Source: Octopus vulgaris (lineage: Eukaryota). From it: 64,000 nucleotides of DNA. Numbering within the stretch: position 1 is the stretch's first letter; every line of letters starts with the position of its first letter. Shown here in pieces: positions 3,049 through 61,957 of this stretch. The position numbers were made by a program, and so were the translations under genes. The notes beneath the pieces were generated by a model. That model saw only the letters and a list, made by a program, of their open reading frames with translations, made no database searches and had not been told where the DNA came from. The DNA is taken from positions 15,748,001 to 15,812,000 of the forward strand of contig OX597841.1 of the NCBI GenBank assembly GCA_951406725.2. Direction: 5' to 3'.

Positions 3049-3431
3049 TGGCACTCCGTCAGTTACGACGACGAGGGTTCCACTTGATCCGATCAACGGA
3101 ACAGCCTGCTCGTGAAATTATCGTGCAAGTGGCTGAGTACACCACAGACACGTTTACCATAACATAGTTCTCGGGGATATTCAGCGTGACATAGAGTGTG
3201 ACAGGGCTGGCCCCTTTGAAATACAGGTACAACAGAAACAGGAAGAAAAAGTGAGAGAAAGTTTGTGGTGAAAGCGTACAGCAGGGTTCGGTACCCCTAC
3301 ACCCGCCGGAGACTCGTGGAGCTTTAATTGTTTTTGCTCAACAAACACGCACAACGCCCGGTCTGGGAATCGAAACCGCAATCCTACGACCGAGAGTCAG
3401 CTGCCCAAAACCACTCGGCCTTTGCGCCTCC
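3049..3431 (-). mobile_element. tRNA-derived SINE family C, near full length
   Basis: Minus strand: GGAGGCGCAAAGGCCGAGTGG (A-box-like), GGTTTCGATTCCC (B-box-like), body ending TCGTCGTCGTAACTGACGGAGTGCCA; homologous fragments near 19.6, 20.1-20.3, 23.1, 42.2, 45.4 and 46.1 kb. Confidence 0.75.
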
Positions 3432-3522
3432 ATATATATGTGTGAGTGAGTGTATGTGTTTGTGTGCATACGTATGTATTTGTATGTGTGTCTGTATATA
3501 TATGTGCGTGTATGTGTGTGTT

Positions 3523-4448: not shown

Positions 4449-4493
4449 GGACCACTGATGCGGTCACAGGAGTGTGACGAAAGATCTCTGGCC
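4449..4493 (+). ncRNA. Minimal type I hammerhead ribozyme-like motif (Penelope-like element type)
   Basis: CCA-CTGATGC-G-GTCACA-ggag-TGTGAC-GAAA-GATC-TC-TGG: stem I CCA/TGG, 6-bp stem II, palindromic stem III AGATCT; A9 replaced by C; lies in a ~220-bp insert flanked by (TA)n on both sides. Confidence 0.6.
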
Positions 4494-4607
4494 GAAATAA
4501 GATTAAGATTAATGTAAAAGATAAATAACACCTAAGCAAAGTAACACCAAATATATTGTGCGTGTGTTTTTATTGGCTAAACTGGCAAAATGACAATTCC
4601 GAAATAT

Positions 4608-4664
<57 letters not shown>

Positions 4665-19560: not shown

Positions 19561-19693
19561 GCTTACTGTAAGGAATTATCTGACACTCTGTCGGTTCCGA
19601 CGACGATGGGGGTTCCAGTGGATGTGGTCAGCAGAGGAGCCTCCTTGCGAAATTAACATGCCAGTAGCTGAGTATACCACAGACCCGTGTACC

Positions 19694-20108
19694 TATTTCT
19701 CTACTACCCACAAGGGTCTAAACACAGAGAGGACAAACAAGGACAGACAAACGGATTAAGTCGGTTACATCGGCCCCAGTGCGTAACTGGTATTTATTTA
19801 ATCGACCCCGAAAGGATGAAAGGCAAAGTCGACCTCGGCGGAATTTGAACTCAGAACGTAAAGACAGACGAAATACCTATTTCTTTACTACCCACAAGGG
19901 CTAAACACAGAGGGGACAAACAAGGACAGACAAACGGATTAAGTCGATTATATCGACTCCAGTGTGTAACTGGTACTTAATTTATCGACCCCGAAAGGAT
20001 GAAAGGCAAAGTCGACCGCGGCGGAATTTGAACTCAGAACGTAGCGGCAGACGAAATACCGCTGAGCATTTCGACCGGCGTGCTAACGTTTCTGCCAGCT
20101 CGTCGCTT
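19694..20108 (-). mobile_element. SINE family B dimer nested in a SINE C copy (~19585-20335)
   Basis: Junction at 19870; flanks rejoin as SINE C sequence CGTGTACC|CTTAACGTAGTTCTC. Confidence 0.82.
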
Positions 20109-24763: not shown

Positions 24764-25382
24764 ACGGCGTGCTAACGTTTCTTATTTCTTTATTGCCCAC
24801 AGGAGGGTAAACACAGAGGGGACAAACAAGGACAGACAGAGGGATTTAGACGATTACATCGATCTCAGTGCGTAACTGGTACTTAATTTATCGATCCCGT
24901 AAGGATGAAAGACAAAGTCAACCTCGGCGGAATTTGAATTCAGAACATAAAGATAGGCGAAATACCTATTTCTTTACTGCCCACAAGGGGCTAAACACAG
25001 AGGGGACAAACAAGGACAGACAAACGGATGAAGTCGATTACATCGATCCCAGTGCGTAACTGGTACTTAATTTATCGATCCCGAAAGGATGAAAGGCAAA
25101 GTCAACCTCGGCGGAATTTGAATTCAGAACATAAAGATAGGCGAAATACCTATTTCTTTACTGCCCACAAGGGGCTAAACACAGAGGGGACAAACAAGGA
25201 CAGACAAACGGATTAAGTCGATTACATCGACGCCAGTGCATAACTGGTACTTAATTTATCGATCCCGTAAGGATGAAAGGCAAAGTCGACCTCAGCGGAA
25301 TTTGAACTCAGAACATAACGGTAGACGAAATACCGCTAAGCATTTCGCCCGGCGTGCTAACGATTCTGCCAGCTCGCCACCT
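24764..25382 (-). mobile_element. SINE family B trimer with 19-bp target-site duplication
   Basis: Junctions at 24959 and 25143 (184-bp period); TTGTAAATTCATA(T/C)ATATA at 24745-24763 and 25383-25401. Confidence 0.88.
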
Positions 25383-28919: not shown

Positions 28920-29496
28920 AAGGCAGCGAGCTGGCAGAATCGTTAGCACGCCGGGCGAAATGCGTAGCCGTATTTCGTCTGCTGTTACGTTCTGAGTTCA
29001 AATTCCGCCGAGGTCGACTTTGCCTTTCATCCTTTCGAGGTCGATTAAATAAGTACCAGCTACGCACTGGGGTCAATATAATCGACTTAATCCCTTTGTT
29101 TGTCCTTGTTTGTCCTCTCTGTGTTTAGCCCCTTGTGGGCAGTAAAGAAATAGGTATTTCGTCTGTTTTTATGTTCTGAGTTCAAATTCCGCCGAATTCG
29201 ACTTTGCTTTTCATCCTTTCAGGGTCGATAAATTAAGTACCAGTAACGCACTGGGGTCGATGTAATCGACTAAATTCCTTTGTCTGTCCTTGTTTGTCCC
29301 CTCTATGTTTAGCCCCTTGTGGGTAGAAAAGAAATAAAATATTTGAAGGCGGCGAGCTGGCGGAAACGTTAGCACGCCGGGCGAAATGCGTAGCCGTATT
29401 TCGTCTGCCGTTACGTTCTGAGTTCAAATTCCGCCGAGGTCGACTTTGCCTTTCATTCTTTCGGGGTCGATTAAATAATAAGTACCAGTTACGCAC
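28920..29496 (+). mobile_element. SINE family B dimer followed by a second, 3'-truncated copy
   Basis: Heads at ~28921 and ~29347, both preceded by AATATTTGA; junction at 29147. Confidence 0.85.
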
Positions 29497-35759: not shown

Positions 35760-36530
35760 ATTTTGTACTCTATGCACAAGACCAAGACATTTTGGGGGAA
35801 GGACCAGTCGATTAGATCAACCCCAGTATGCAACTGGTACTTAATTGGTCGACCCCGAAAGGATGAAGACACTTGCAAATTGCCTCGGCAGGAAATTGAA
35901 CTTAGAACGTAGCGGCAGACGAAATACCTATTTCTTTACTGCCCACAAGGGGCTTAAACACAGAGAGGACAAACAAGGACAGACAAACGGATTAAGTCGA
36001 TTATATCGACCCCCAGTGCGTAACTGGTACTTATTTAATCGACCCCGAAAGGATGAAAGGCAAAGTCGACCTCGGTGGAATTTGAACTCAGAACGTAAAG
36101 ACAGACGAAATACCTATTTCTTTACTACCCACAAGGAGCTAAACACAGAGGGGACAAACAAGGACAGAGAAACGAATTAAGTCGATTATATCGACCCCAG
36201 TGCGTAACTGGTACTTAATTTATCGACCCCGAAAGGATGAAAGACAGACAAACGAAAAGTCGACCTCGGAGGAATTAGAACTCAGAACGTAGCGGCAGAC
36301 GAAATACCGCTAAGCATTTCGCCCGGCGTGCTAACATTTCTGCCAGCTCGCCGCCTTAAAAATATATTCTTTTCTACTCTAGGCACAAGGCCAGAAATTT
36401 TTGAGGAGGGACTCAGCTGATTAGATCGACCCCAGTACGCAACTGGTACTTAATTTATCGATCCCGAAAGGTTGAAAGGCAAAGTCGATCTCGGTGGAAG
36501 TTGAACATTTCTACCATCTCGACACCTTGA
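35760..36530 (-). mobile_element. SINE family B array (3 modules, last with alternative tail) plus a second alternative-tail copy
   Basis: Junctions at 35921 and 36107; head at 36301-36357. Confidence 0.82.
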
Positions 36531-51244: not shown

Positions 51245-51909
51245 TAGCACGCCAGGCGAAGTGCTTAGCGGTATTTCGTCTGTCGCCACGTTCTGAGTTC
51301 AAATTCCGCCGAGGTCGACTTTGCCTTTCATCCTTTCGAGGTCGATAAATTAAGTACCAGTTACGCACTGGGGTCGATGCAATCGACTTAATCCATTTGT
51401 CTGTCTTTGTTTGTCCTCTCTGTGTTTAGCCCCTTGTGCGTAGTAAAGAAATAGGTATTTCGTCTGCCGTTACGGGGTCGATAAATTAAGTACCAGTTAC
51501 GCACTGGGGTCGATATAATCGACTTAATCCATTTGTCTGTCTTTGTTTGTCCTCTCTGTGTTTAGCCCCTTGTGCGTAGTAAAGAAATAGGTATTTCGTC
51601 TGCCGTTACGGGGTCGATAAATTAAGTACCAGTTACGCACTGGGGTCGATATAATCGACTTAATCCATTTGTCTGTCTTTGTTTGTCCTCTCTGTGTTTA
51701 GCCCCTTGTGGGTAGTAAAGAAATAGGTATTTCGTCTACCGCTACGTTCTGAGTTCAAATTCCGCCGAGGTCGACTTTGCCTTTCATCCTTTCGGGGTCG
51801 ATTAAATAAGTACCAGTTACGCACTGGGGTCGATGCAATCGACTTAATCCATTTGTCTGTCTTTGTTTGTCCTCTTTGTGTTTAGCCCCTTGTGGGTAAT
51901 AAAGAAATA
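51245..51909 (+). mobile_element. SINE family B tetramer (184, 136, 136, 184 bp modules)
   Basis: Module starts GGTATTTCGTCT at 51270, 51454, 51590 and 51726. Confidence 0.88.
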
Positions 51910-55264: not shown

Positions 55265-55648
55265 TCTGACTGCGGCCATGCTGGAGCACCACCTTGAGTC
55301 GAACAAATCTACCCAGGTACCTTTTTATTTTTTTGAAGTCTGGTACTTATTTTATCTGTCCATTTCGCTGAACTGCTAACTTACAGGGACGTAAACACAC
55401 CAACAACGGTGGTAATTCGGTGGCGGAGGGCAAACACAGACACAAAGACACACACACACACTCATCCTCCATATATATGTATATTTTCCTCTGTCTTCCC
55501 TTCTCTGGATCTTTCCTTCTCCTATGTTTCCGACGAAGAGCTCCGCTCGAAACGTTAAACCCTCCTTCTTTCCTGAGCGTTCAATAATACTATATTTGTT
55601 CCACGTCCTCGCGTTGTTGTGTTTTTTTGTGCTTTCTTGTTTGGATTA

Positions 55649-55699
<51 letters not shown>

Positions 55700-55836
55700 G
55701 ACAGGATTCTTTCAGTTTCCGTCTACCAAATCGACTCACAAGGCTTTGGTCGGCTCGATGCTATAGTTCAGTCCCACGCAATGGGATTGAACCTCGAACC
55801 ATGTGGTTGAGAAGCAAGCTTCTTACCACACAGCCA
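55265..55836 (-). mobile_element. Diverged SINE family A with a foreign insert (~55480-55652) in its internal microsatellite
   Basis: 3' half 55265-55460 and 5' half 55695-55836 flank the insert. Confidence 0.75.
55526..55560 (+). ncRNA. Minimal hammerhead-like motif (U4 to C in this copy)
   Basis: GTTT-CCGACGA-A-GAGC-tcc-GCTC-GAAA-CG-TT-AAAC; host insert ends TTTTGTGCTTTC.TGTTTGGATTAACT(TA)n like 45102-45130. Confidence 0.6.
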
Positions 55837-56155
55837 ATGTGCATTTATATATAATCTATTTTTTCGTTATTTTTCACTTGCCCTACGTTAAATGTTGTGT
55901 TATTTCTCCTTGGAAACAATTTTTAGTGGCTATACCATAGCGGATCTATTTTTAGCACTAGAGTCGACCACATAGTTGTTACTCTCTCATATTTATGTAT
56001 ATATGTATATATGTATGTATTCATGTATGTATGTATGTATGTATGTATGTGTGTATGTATGTGTGTATGTATGTATGTATGTATGTATGTATGTATGTAT
56101 GTATGAATGTATGTATGTATGTATGTATGTATGTATGTATATATATATAGATAAC

Positions 56156-56451
56156 AACAATTGCAGCGTGGAAGGTGTTTGTAAGCCATTCAAGAAACAC
56201 ACAAAAGCCGTTCGATTCACTCCAACATTTAAGTTTAATTTGTCAAAATATTTTCGTCGCTAAAATCCGCGACCTGTTCACTGACCTGTTCACTGACCTG
56301 TTCAATGCAGCACGGATTTTTGTCAGTGAACAGGTCGCGGATTTTAGCGACGAAAATATTTTGACAAATTAAACTTAAATGTTGGAGTGAATCGAACGGC
56401 TTTTGTGTGTTTCTTAAATGGCTTACAAACACCTTCCACGCTGCAATTGTT
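56156..56451. repeat. 130-bp near-perfect inverted repeat, 36-nt spacer
   Basis: 56156-56285 vs 56322-56451, one mismatch seen; spacer contains tandem CTGTTCACTGAC. Confidence 0.92.
56319..56368 (+). ncRNA. Hammerhead-like motif with G3-C8 swapped core
   Basis: TTTGTCA-GTGAACA-G-GTCGC-ggatttta-GCGAC-GAAA-ATAT-TT-TGACAAA: 7-bp stem I, 5-bp stem II, palindromic stem III. Confidence 0.65.
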
Positions 56452-57276
56452 TTCGTTTCAGCACACGATCTCAGATCAAATTACTTGCTATGCGAGTACA
56501 TCCCCTATATATAGATAGATATAGATATATATATATGTCTGTTTGTGTGTATGTGTGTGTAGTAAAATAAGGATTCCGATAGAATTAGGTGCTTGAAAAG
56601 AAATGCACCAGGTAGGGTTGGATAAAACCGTGGTTCCGGCCTATGGTTGGTAAGTACCAAATGGGACATTCCGGTTGTGTACACTGAGAAACCGGGTGTT
56701 TTGTAATGAACAGATGTCCTCATTCTTCTATTTAAAAAAAAATGTGTTAGAAACAGCTGTAATGATCTGACGATTATCGGTCGTCTGTTATTATTCATAT
56801 TTATATAAAGAGAGAGAGAGGAGGAGAGAGGGGAGGAGAGAGGGGGCTGTGTTTATGTATACATGTAGGGAAAGGGTGCAGTAATGAAACTGTGTCCCTA
56901 CTCAGGGTCCCCAATGCAACAGCTGAGAAACTTGATCTCCCTCGGCTTCTCGCTTAAAAGGAATGTTGTTCGTAGACTCCGTATTGTCGCTGTTGTTGTT
57001 GTTGTTGTGATAGTCGTTGCTATGGTTACGCTCCTCGGTGACTGTAGGTAGCAGTCGTAGTAGTAGTTTGTGTGTGTGCGTGTATGTGTGTATATATGTG
57101 TGTGTGTGTGTGTGTGTGTGGTTGTTGTCTGTATTGCTGGTCGTGATGGTGAAGGTAGAGTTGGTGATGATAGTGGTTAAGGGGTTGGGGGAGGGGAGGA
57201 GTGGTTGTGATAGCAATGGTGGTGGTGGTGGTGGTAATGGTGGTGGTAGTGGTGGTCGTCGTCGTAGTGACGGTAA

Positions 57277-57675
57277 TACTCTTACTCTTTTACTTGTTTC
57301 AGTCATTTGACTGTGGCCATGCTGGAGTACCGCCTTTAGTCGAGCAAATCGACCCCAGGACTTATTCTTTGCAAGCCTAGTACTTATTCTATCGTTGTCT
57401 TTTGCCGAACCGCTAAGTTACGGGGGAAGTAAACACACCAGCATCGGTTGTCAAGCAATGCTAGGGAGACAAACACAGACACACAAACACACACATATAT
57501 ATACATATACACAACGGGCTTCTTTCAGTTTCCGCCTACCAAATCCACTCACAAGGCTTTGGTCGGCCTGAGGCTATAGTGGAAGACACTTGCCCAAGGT
57601 GCCACGCAGTGGGACTGAACCCGGAACTGTGAGGTTGGTAAGCAAGCTACTTACCACACAGCCACTCCTACGCCT
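57277..57675 (-). mobile_element. SINE family A, full length
   Basis: Family A head, body and tail. Confidence 0.88.
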
Positions 57676-57970
57676 AATGGTACAATTTTAAAAAAAACTG
57701 GCCCCTATCGCGTTGTCTTCTTTTTTTTGCTCATTGCTTAACATTAAACGGGACTGCCGAGCAAAATGCTTTGCGGCACTATTACGTGTTTTTAAGTTCT
57801 GGGTTCAAATCCCGCCAAGGTCGACCTTGCCTTTCATCCTTTCGGGATCGATAAAATCAGCACCAGTTAAGCTCTGGTTTCGATTTAACTGGATTAGCCC
57901 CGCCTCCTTCCTCGAACTTGTAGGCCTTGTGCCAAACTTTGCAGCCGATATTAAAAGAATTGGTCTGAAT

Positions 57971-58136
57971 AGGCGTAGGAGTGGCTGTGTGGTAAGTAGC
58001 TTGCTTACCAACCACATAGTTCCGGGTTCAGTCCCACTGCGTGGCATCTTGGGCAAGTGTCTTCTGCTAGAGCCTCGGACCGACCAATGCCTTGTGAGTG
58101 GATTTGGTAGATGGAAACTGAAAGAAGCCCGTCGTA

Positions 58137-58205
<69 letters not shown>

Positions 58206-61159: not shown

Positions 61160-61957
61160 ATGCGTGGACAATTTCATAGGGATGTTGAAGAAAAGACAGA
61201 AAAAACATGGCTATGGGTGACTAAAAGTGATTTAAAACCGGAAACGGAGGCTCTAATCTGTGCTGCCCAAGAGCAAGCATTAAGAACCAATTACATCAAA
61301 TACAGAGTAGACAACACATCAGAAAGTAATAAGTGCAGAATTTGTGGATAAAATGGGGAAACCGTGTGGAATATTACCAGTTAATGTATGCCACTAGCCC
61401 AGAAAGAATATAAGAGGCGTCGTAGCAATATAGGAAGGATTTCTATTGGACACTTTATAGCAGGTATGGACTTCACAGAGCAGAAAAGTGACATCATCGA
61501 AAAGGATAATACAAAGATCCTATGGGATTTTATGATTCAGTGCGACCATGAGATAGAGAATAGGAAACAAGACATGGTGTTAATTGAGAAAGAAAGCAAA
61601 CGATGCTGGATCATAGATATAGAATGCCCAGCTGATAACAAGGCATGCGATAAGGAAGAAAGAAAAGTCGAGAGATATGACAGGTTAGCTTGGGAGGTAA
61701 GCAGTTGTGGTCGATGAAAAAGGTGGTAGTAGTACCAATAATTTTCGGAGTCCAGGGAAAAGGGAGTAAAAATTTTGAGAAGACGTGGAACAAATAAGGG
61801 CTGCAATAAAGATGGAGCACTTGCAGAGAACAGCACTCTTCGGAACCATCGAATACTCTGGATGGTGCTCGAAAAAGAAGAGGTGTTACCTTAGTTCATT
61901 AGTAGTGAACAACTGACACTGTAGTACATCTCCAGCATAAGAAGCTGTATAAAGGCA
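61160..61957 (+). pseudogene. R4/Dong-clade LINE 3' fragment (zinc knuckle plus restriction-like endonuclease) inserted in (TAA)n
   Basis: GQF.R...TWLW....LKPETEALICAAQEQALRT...CRICG...ETV..I...C, KILWDF.IQCD....RKQD.V......IIDI.CP......ERK..Y..L; stops and frameshifts; TAA/TGA repeats on both flanks. Confidence 0.88.

Follow-up and report, generated by a model that had tools for sequence, protein, structure and literature searches.

A recent back-to-back insertion of a Penelope-like terminal repeat in Octopus vulgaris, each copy with a probably derived G3-C8 minimal hammerhead predicted to cleave slowly

The window analyzed here is a stretch of 64,000 nucleotides of the Octopus vulgaris genome (contig OX597841.1, positions 15,748,001 to 15,812,000). 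At 56156-56451 it carries two inverted arms (56156-56285 and 56322-56451) of 130 nt each, separated by a 36-nt spacer and differing by a single mismatch at 56191, which bears out the 130-bp palindrome described in an earlier note on this DNA. Judged from its organization, the locus is an ordinary, recent insertion of a Penelope-like retrotransposon (PLE), made of two 5′-truncated terminal-repeat copies joined at their 5′ ends. The left arm, on the minus strand, is a tailless, 5′-truncated copy pointing leftward and spanning unit positions 18-147. The right copy (56305-56505, plus strand) is a complete short unit that starts at the common 5′ boundary and includes the whole tail (56452-56505), the latter being present on one arm only. 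It includes the first 29 codons of the element ORF (56418-56505), which continues into a reverse transcriptase-endonuclease ORF in the full copies L061 and L322, and this ORF-start segment likely holds both reverse-transcription start sites. Between the arms, the junction filler at 56286-56304 consists of tandem re-copies of a 12-nt piece from the 5′ end of the left arm and probably arose by template slippage. The same 12 letters are found in direct orientation at 56142-56153, where they end a (TATG)n/(TA)n tract, and at 56506-56517, and are likely a target-site duplication; similar non-TA direct repeats of 10-15 bp flank four others among 29 insertions examined.

A read-through transcript of both arms is predicted to form a single hairpin of -244.7 kcal/mol; the double-stranded RNA proposed earlier to mask the ribozyme would be a by-product of the normal insertion structure of PLEs. 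The window copy is most likely dead and without a function of its own, and an ORF scan of the window gave no evident host gene near the palindrome. The DNA of the window is rich in repeats (the genome searched totals 2.8 Gb). SINE-like copies lie beside the palindrome at 55267-55836, 57308-57676, and 57970-58150, the last two forming a 181-nt inverted pair that is 93% complementary. Short tandem arrays with units of 136-217 nt occur at 1104-1754, 19690-20060, 24783-25334, 28970-29336, 35806-36308, and 51340-51746, and several of them have one SINE-like unit in common. An open stretch of 110 aa at 61385-61715 (plus strand) resembles the restriction-like endonuclease of site-specific non-LTR retrotransposons.

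The right copy contains, at 56319-56368 on the plus strand, a minimal type I hammerhead with a G3-C8 core. Stem I pairs 56319-56325 with 56362-56368 (7 bp) and is followed by the core GUGAACA (56326-56332), with G3 at 56326 and C8 at 56331. An unpaired extra G (56333) sits between A9 and G10.1, ahead of a 5-bp stem II (56334-56338/56347-56351) and GAA (56352-56354). The 6-nt palindrome AAUAUU (56355-56360) constitutes stem III and precedes U17 at 56361, 3′ of which cleavage is predicted. The earlier note had stem I, the GUGAACA core, stem II, and U17 right and overlooked the extra G; it was also right about a palindromic stem III, but the 10-nt palindrome that it quoted overlaps A13, A14, U17, and the first base of stem I. 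Its antisense copy in the left arm is there as well and is, moreover, a complete sense hammerhead on the minus strand (56239-56285, G3 at 56281) with stem I cut to 4 bp.

The literal consensus core CUGAnGA (C3, G8) is thus absent at this motif (G3 56326, C8 56331). Positions 3 and 8 are complementary, as G-C in 6,956 genome matches and as C-G in sister families. U4, G5, A6, A9, G12, A13, A14, the A15.1-U16.1 pair, and H17 are all found in the window copy and in most older copies. Stems I and II, G10.1-C11.1, and the extra nucleotide after A9 are all present, in a pair count that is partly circular. The short palindromic stem III measures 6 nt in young copies and mostly 4 nt in the oldest G3-C8 family. 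For a 61-nt piece, stems I and II come out of the folding at -15.4 kcal/mol (z -3.17), an energy that none of 200 shuffled sequences reached, and the core motif occurs twice in the window versus 0.11 expected. Rfam returned no hammerhead for the window or the motif at E values up to 10. As two canonical minimal hammerheads run as controls were likewise unmatched, this blank is uninformative and not owed to the swap; a descriptor built on CUGAnGA would miss the motif, as the earlier note says. A PDB search gave nothing useful.

The arm belongs to a high-copy repeat, with 759 candidates (40 scored) and 10,275 exact genome matches to a 21-nt piece. Whole elements were reached through copies that extend further upstream than the arm. 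One of them (L061) has a repeat-ORF-repeat arrangement with a spacing of 4.26 kb, plus an inverted truncated copy. The hammerhead lies in both of its repeats, sense to the ORF and ~90 nt before the ATG; the ORF, with its start ~90 nt downstream of the core, codes for a reverse transcriptase followed by a short Cys linker and then a GIY-YIG-like nuclease, as read from its motifs. The names of these motifs follow PMC8557442 in part. Pfam did not match the query ORF itself, and RVT_1 and GIY-YIG were detected weakly in 4 and 2, respectively, of 26 aligned relatives. The 5′ part of the ORF has 48 candidates genome-wide, and none of the four near-full copies examined has an intact ORF. The nearest named relative of the element protein is from Octopus vulgaris itself, at 57% identity. 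The N-terminal part of the open 1,632-aa frame in the closest related PLE (L232:465-2420) holds a long low-complexity repeat.

The first reading of this locus had identified the hammerhead and the reciprocal change and missed the PLE terminal repeat, of which the palindrome is the normal insertion structure. Tails, inverted truncated copies, and (TA)n targets are described as general PLE features in the part of PMC8557442 available to us. The earlier note's concern that the palindrome might be an assembly artefact is answered by 75 back-to-back pairs with varied junctions in the fetched loci (four double-counted); with so many pairs joined differently, the window palindrome is not a locus-specific oddity of assembly. 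The tail (~55 nt) is on exactly one arm in 68 of the 75 pairs, on neither in 6, and on both in 1, with the same four pairs double-counted. The palindrome could also be read as a MITE, as a gene for a microRNA-type hairpin, or as an artefact of assembly, with a chance likeness to a hammerhead, given the long near-perfect inverted repeat and a weak Rfam match to mir-1295 (47 bits versus a threshold of 100). We regard this as extremely improbable: the arm is the terminal repeat of a reverse transcriptase-endonuclease element, most features fit PLE insertions, many arm copies are single and non-palindromic, and the junctions vary by locus.

The 5′ ends of the copies cluster at a YAG preceded by a branch-like motif and a pyrimidine tract (56303-56307 in the window, and many other loci). 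In 40 loci among the first 100 listed matches to the 21-nt piece, 26 of 49 arms begin 55-71 nt upstream of the cut. The branch-like motif, pyrimidine tract, and YAG, which give this site the look of a 3′ splice site, are conserved in the 24 longer copies in which we checked for a terminal-repeat intron. However, contigs from four runs guessed to be RNA held no spliced joint, and no shared longer first exon was seen upstream of the pile-up in the copies examined. An extra G at the pile-up site in 13 of 79 short copies is what a copied cap would give, and a capped start seems somewhat likelier than splicing to a tiny exon. In contigs of the same presumed-RNA runs, coverage of the short unit greatly exceeds that of the ORF, which gives no evidence of element transcription. 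At L311 and L309 (G000:C28), at least seven short units with a variant 5′ end follow one another head to tail, with TA tracts between them, and some of the copies there carry G at position 8.

The swap is not peculiar to this locus. The exact 17-nt G3-C8 core has 6,956 matches in the genome versus 1 for a control. The canonical C3-G8 core in the same stems has 27 matches versus 1 for its control, and the 15 of these examined are old homologues alignable over the whole unit. These canonical sister families have stems identical to those of the G3-C8 copies and the same extra G. The window itself holds a decayed canonical sister copy at 4453-4611 (plus strand), with a 6-nt palindromic stem III and C17. 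A middle-aged family with a different loop II has 3,710 matches, and its core is unchanged in 94 of the first 100 listed. The oldest G3-C8 family has 65 matches versus 0 for its control; among 30 loci with its pattern, 27 are of the true type, and the other 3 are mutated copies of the main family. This oldest family agrees with the young form in 153 of 189 columns (81%) and differs from it at N7, in loop II, at the outer stem I pair, where the change is compensatory, and in the length of stem III, which is palindromic in both; U is found at position 16.1 in 21 of its 27 copies. The G3-C8 pair thus outlasted changes at position 7 and in loop II, stem I, and stem III.

Because the search patterns fixed most of the core letters, core conservation in the old families is partly circular, as is the pair count, and the test comes from about ten copies in which the core was free to vary: in the canonical families, five are C3-G8 and one is U3.G8, and second arms of the oldest swapped family gave three G3-C8 and one G3.A8. 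A 61-row tree in which positions 3, 7, and 8 were masked placed a single change of the 3-8 state on one branch (support 99/93), compared with a mean of 14.4 changes after shuffling. Together with the canonical homologues in the same stems, this single split upholds the proposal of a reciprocal change that is not random decay, and the G3-C8 swap is an old, family-wide state.

Related PLEs indicate the direction of the change. Of 70 metagenome loci that encode related proteins, 40 carry a similarly built motif, in every case on the strand of the ORF. The 25 distinct motifs, many of them from similar samples and thus non-independent, comprise 23 C3-G8, 1 U3-A8, and 1 A3.G8, so that a Watson-Crick 3-8 pair is kept in 24 of 25. 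Since these outgroups show C3-G8 or U3-A8, G3-C8 is probably the derived state. U3-A8 is present in both repeats of one locus (L235:14-60 and 3424-3470, plus strand), and A3.G8 is at L295:1728-1780 (plus strand). The closest relative (47% protein identity) has U15.1-A16.1 at L232:4965-5025 (plus strand). End branches of old copies range from 0.13 to 0.5, and an Octopus calibration in the available part of PMC13282606 equates 0.2 with ~56 million years; on this rough, borrowed scale, the switch from C3-G8 to G3-C8 would be tens of millions of years old.

Position 8 is other than C in 458 of 7,414 matches, and a hand count of the first 100 listed gave 48 T, 31 G, and 21 A. Of the 31 listed G3.G8 copies, 20 were examined as a possible ancestral intermediate subfamily; these 20 are spread over several backgrounds and invariably have A at position 7, which makes recurrent mutation likelier than a surviving intermediate. 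Further G3-C8 families with another first base in stem II were not enriched (1,490 matches versus 3,105 for the control), and three rows of that search led to the oldest G3-C8 family. U17 as compensation for G3 is unproven, because U17 is found in 18 of 25 motifs of canonical relatives. The G3-C8 core is reported to work better with G17 than with C17 (available part of PMC3884650).

Whether the swapped hammerhead cuts must be judged by analogy and from the copies themselves. In the hammerhead of an anole PLE, the C3G/G8C double mutant partly restores cleavage, and this ribozyme needs the element's protein, its cleavage being dispensable for insertion (PMC11167929, as far as available). A full pairwise scan found the G:C swap to be the sole rescuing double mutant in this motif (accessible text of PMC9901934). 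By comparison with these results, the G3-C8 hammerhead likely still supports slow self-cleavage, as a prediction. The dimer hammerhead fold has a predicted energy of -28.8 kcal/mol versus -30.8 for two monomers and -32.7 for the best dimer fold, and G3 can wobble-pair with U17 in fold predictions. In this model, a dimer fold ~2 kcal/mol above two monomers would fit a weak, assisted activity.

The ends of the copies show little trace of cleavage. A base other than T precedes the predicted cut in 156 copies, and ~40% of those examined are true junctions. Among 30 such sites, 9 are clear junctions, 5 are junctions by stem I microhomology, 2 are unclear, and 14 are point changes; 12 of 22 A-flanked arms are junctions. 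By extrapolation, copies that start at the predicted cut are estimated at ~0.8-1% of ~10,400. The nearby background is ~0.5% per base (8 of 49 arms over 30 nt), and this unmatched comparison gives no clear excess of copy ends at the cut. Since copy ends do not pile up there, the inserted RNA appears to be mostly uncut. At L349 and L157, the two arms each start at the predicted cut or no more than one base away from it, an anecdotal observation at sites where stem I/III microhomology also favours junctions.

The arms of the pairs bear on how they were inserted. The two arms of a pair end near unit positions 147 and 200, respectively, which matches the two internal starts of the anole element. 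At L002, L121, L127, and L128, the arms of a single insertion carry different loop II haplotypes. In the 18 youngest pairs, diagnostic sites differ in 9 of 159 cases versus 9 of 1,846 at other sites, about ten-fold when summed by hand, whereas when all 75 pairs are pooled, diagnostic sites mismatch hardly more often (27 of 424) than the background (270 of 5,735). Palindromes with arms from different subfamilies are sequence signs pointing to two RNA templates.

From these elements, we can propose a pathway. The element protein would cut both strands in TA-rich DNA, and reverse transcription would start at two internal sites near the ORF start, as in the anole PLE. The resulting two cDNAs, which in some cases at least would stem from different RNAs, would then be joined at their 5′ ends; the structure of the window locus and its filler would reflect two cDNAs primed on both strands of one break and joined with slippage. 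A full copy reaching from the internal start site to the 5′ end of the RNA would account for the common 200-nt unit. Stem III is expected to form only between two RNAs, and in such a dimer, the cut site of one RNA would be served by the core of the other. If positions 3 and 8 must pair and the identity of the bases is secondary, G3-C8 would keep part of the activity, and an intermediate with a single change could be sheltered because the core of the partner RNA serves its cut site. Insertion probably does not depend on cleavage, which may serve in the trimming of tandem transcripts or in translation.

Taken together, we consider it probable that the locus is a recent back-to-back insertion of a PLE terminal repeat and that each copy carries a derived G3-C8 minimal hammerhead, likely with a slow, dimer- or protein-dependent self-cleavage. 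A bolder version is doubtful: this would be the first natural active G3-C8 hammerhead, its activity being predicted, and the palindromic stem III would pair two element RNAs, a dimer of the reverse transcriptase then copying one into each end of a double-strand break. If true, template pairing would explain one-tailed palindromes with arms from different subfamilies, and cover by the partner RNA would explain how the 3-8 pair could flip. Against template pairing by the hammerhead, Naiad elements make inverted copies too and are reported to have no canonical hammerhead (PMC8557442, in its available part).

Clearly less likely than slow cleavage, though not negligible, is a different outcome from the same element and ancestry: the G3-C8 hammerhead may no longer cut and be kept for protein binding, RNA dimerisation, translation, or overlapping promoter signals. 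The lack of a pile-up at the cut and the marginal dimer fold agree with it, G3.G8 copies occur with some frequency, insertion by hammerhead mutants is normal in the anole system (PMC11167929, available part), and Penelope has an internal promoter in this region (PMC2377424, available part). On the other hand, the Watson-Crick pair in nearly all related motifs and across the switch is what catalysis needs, and the swap is the sole double change known to rescue activity (PMC9901934, accessible text). Should the ribozyme already have been dead in a master copy, both changes could be neutral hitch-hikers and their reciprocity a coincidence. A single switch was seen, so the covariation is one event here, and dead copies mutate freely at position 8 (458 of 7,414 matches). 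We nevertheless find such a coincidence hard to credit, because it would take two transversions to exactly complementary bases, no family with an unpaired 3-8 was seen among the copies examined, and stems I-III were maintained through ~19% divergence.

G3-C8 is a real natural core variant that is old, abundant, and apparently undescribed so far. The literature searched, as far as its texts were available, has it as a laboratory mutant only; this coverage excludes Lunse 2017 (which has many PLE hammerheads and may contain the variant), Przybilski and Hammann 2007, Hammann 2012, and Nelson and Uhlenbeck 2008. It is absent from the 56 motifs in the available supplement of PMC4209133 and from File S2 of PMC8557442. 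The available parts of PMC6765202, PMC6155905, bioRxiv 10.64898/2026.07.22.740005, PMC6962438, PMC13725137, PMC10085705, PMC3884650, and PMC2377424 do not mention it. The 3-8 pair was proven by laboratory swaps, and a natural purine-pyrimidine reversal kept by a lineage would be the evolutionary version of this experiment. With ~7,000 matches in one genome, descriptor searches based on CUGAnGA or UUGAnAA undercount hammerheads. As their stems are identical, the C3-G8 and G3-C8 families are matched natural constructs for studying the role of PLE hammerheads, and the arm-by-arm comparison offers genomic support for insertion from two templates.

The following comparisons with known systems draw on the available parts of the cited papers. 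The element resembles Nematis and Neptune (Craig et al. 2021, PMC8557442) in its reverse transcriptase, CX2-5CxxC linker, and GIY-YIG nuclease, its tail, its inverted truncated copies, and its (TA)n targets. Its linker is short, as in the Nematis rows of Fig. S2 of that paper, in a by-eye comparison of length, and a Cys linker before the nuclease sets it apart from Penelope/Poseidon elements. In contrast to the Octopus core, all hammerheads in File S2 of the same paper start with CUGA. Natural covariation of the 3-8 pair is also seen in U3-A8 hammerheads (Perreault et al. 2011, PMC3088659; Schistosoma Cercyon, PMC4209133). However, U3-A8 keeps a pyrimidine at 3 and a purine at 8 through two transitions, whereas G3-C8 reverses them through two transversions.

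In architecture, the motif is like the PLE minimal type I hammerheads (Cervera and de la Pena 2014, PMC4209133), which have a short palindromic stem III that needs a dimer, an extra nucleotide after A9, G10.1-C11.1, and a position in the terminal repeat. Their elements also leave thousands of truncated copies and opposite-strand pairs, and in Drosophila virilis an intron end lies near stem I, which may have a counterpart here. The difference is in the core, G3-C8 here, while their 56 representative motifs are 54 C3-G8 and 2 U3-A8, with no cephalopod among them. With the anole Poseidon element PAc (Frangieh et al. 2024, PMC11167929), the Octopus element appears to share two internal sites at which reverse transcription starts and which set the extent of the tail, AT-rich targets, extension of both strands, a hammerhead adjoining the ORF start, and the use of uncut RNA for insertion. 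In PAc, C3G/G8C is an engineered change that gives partial rescue, whereas in Octopus it is the natural state.
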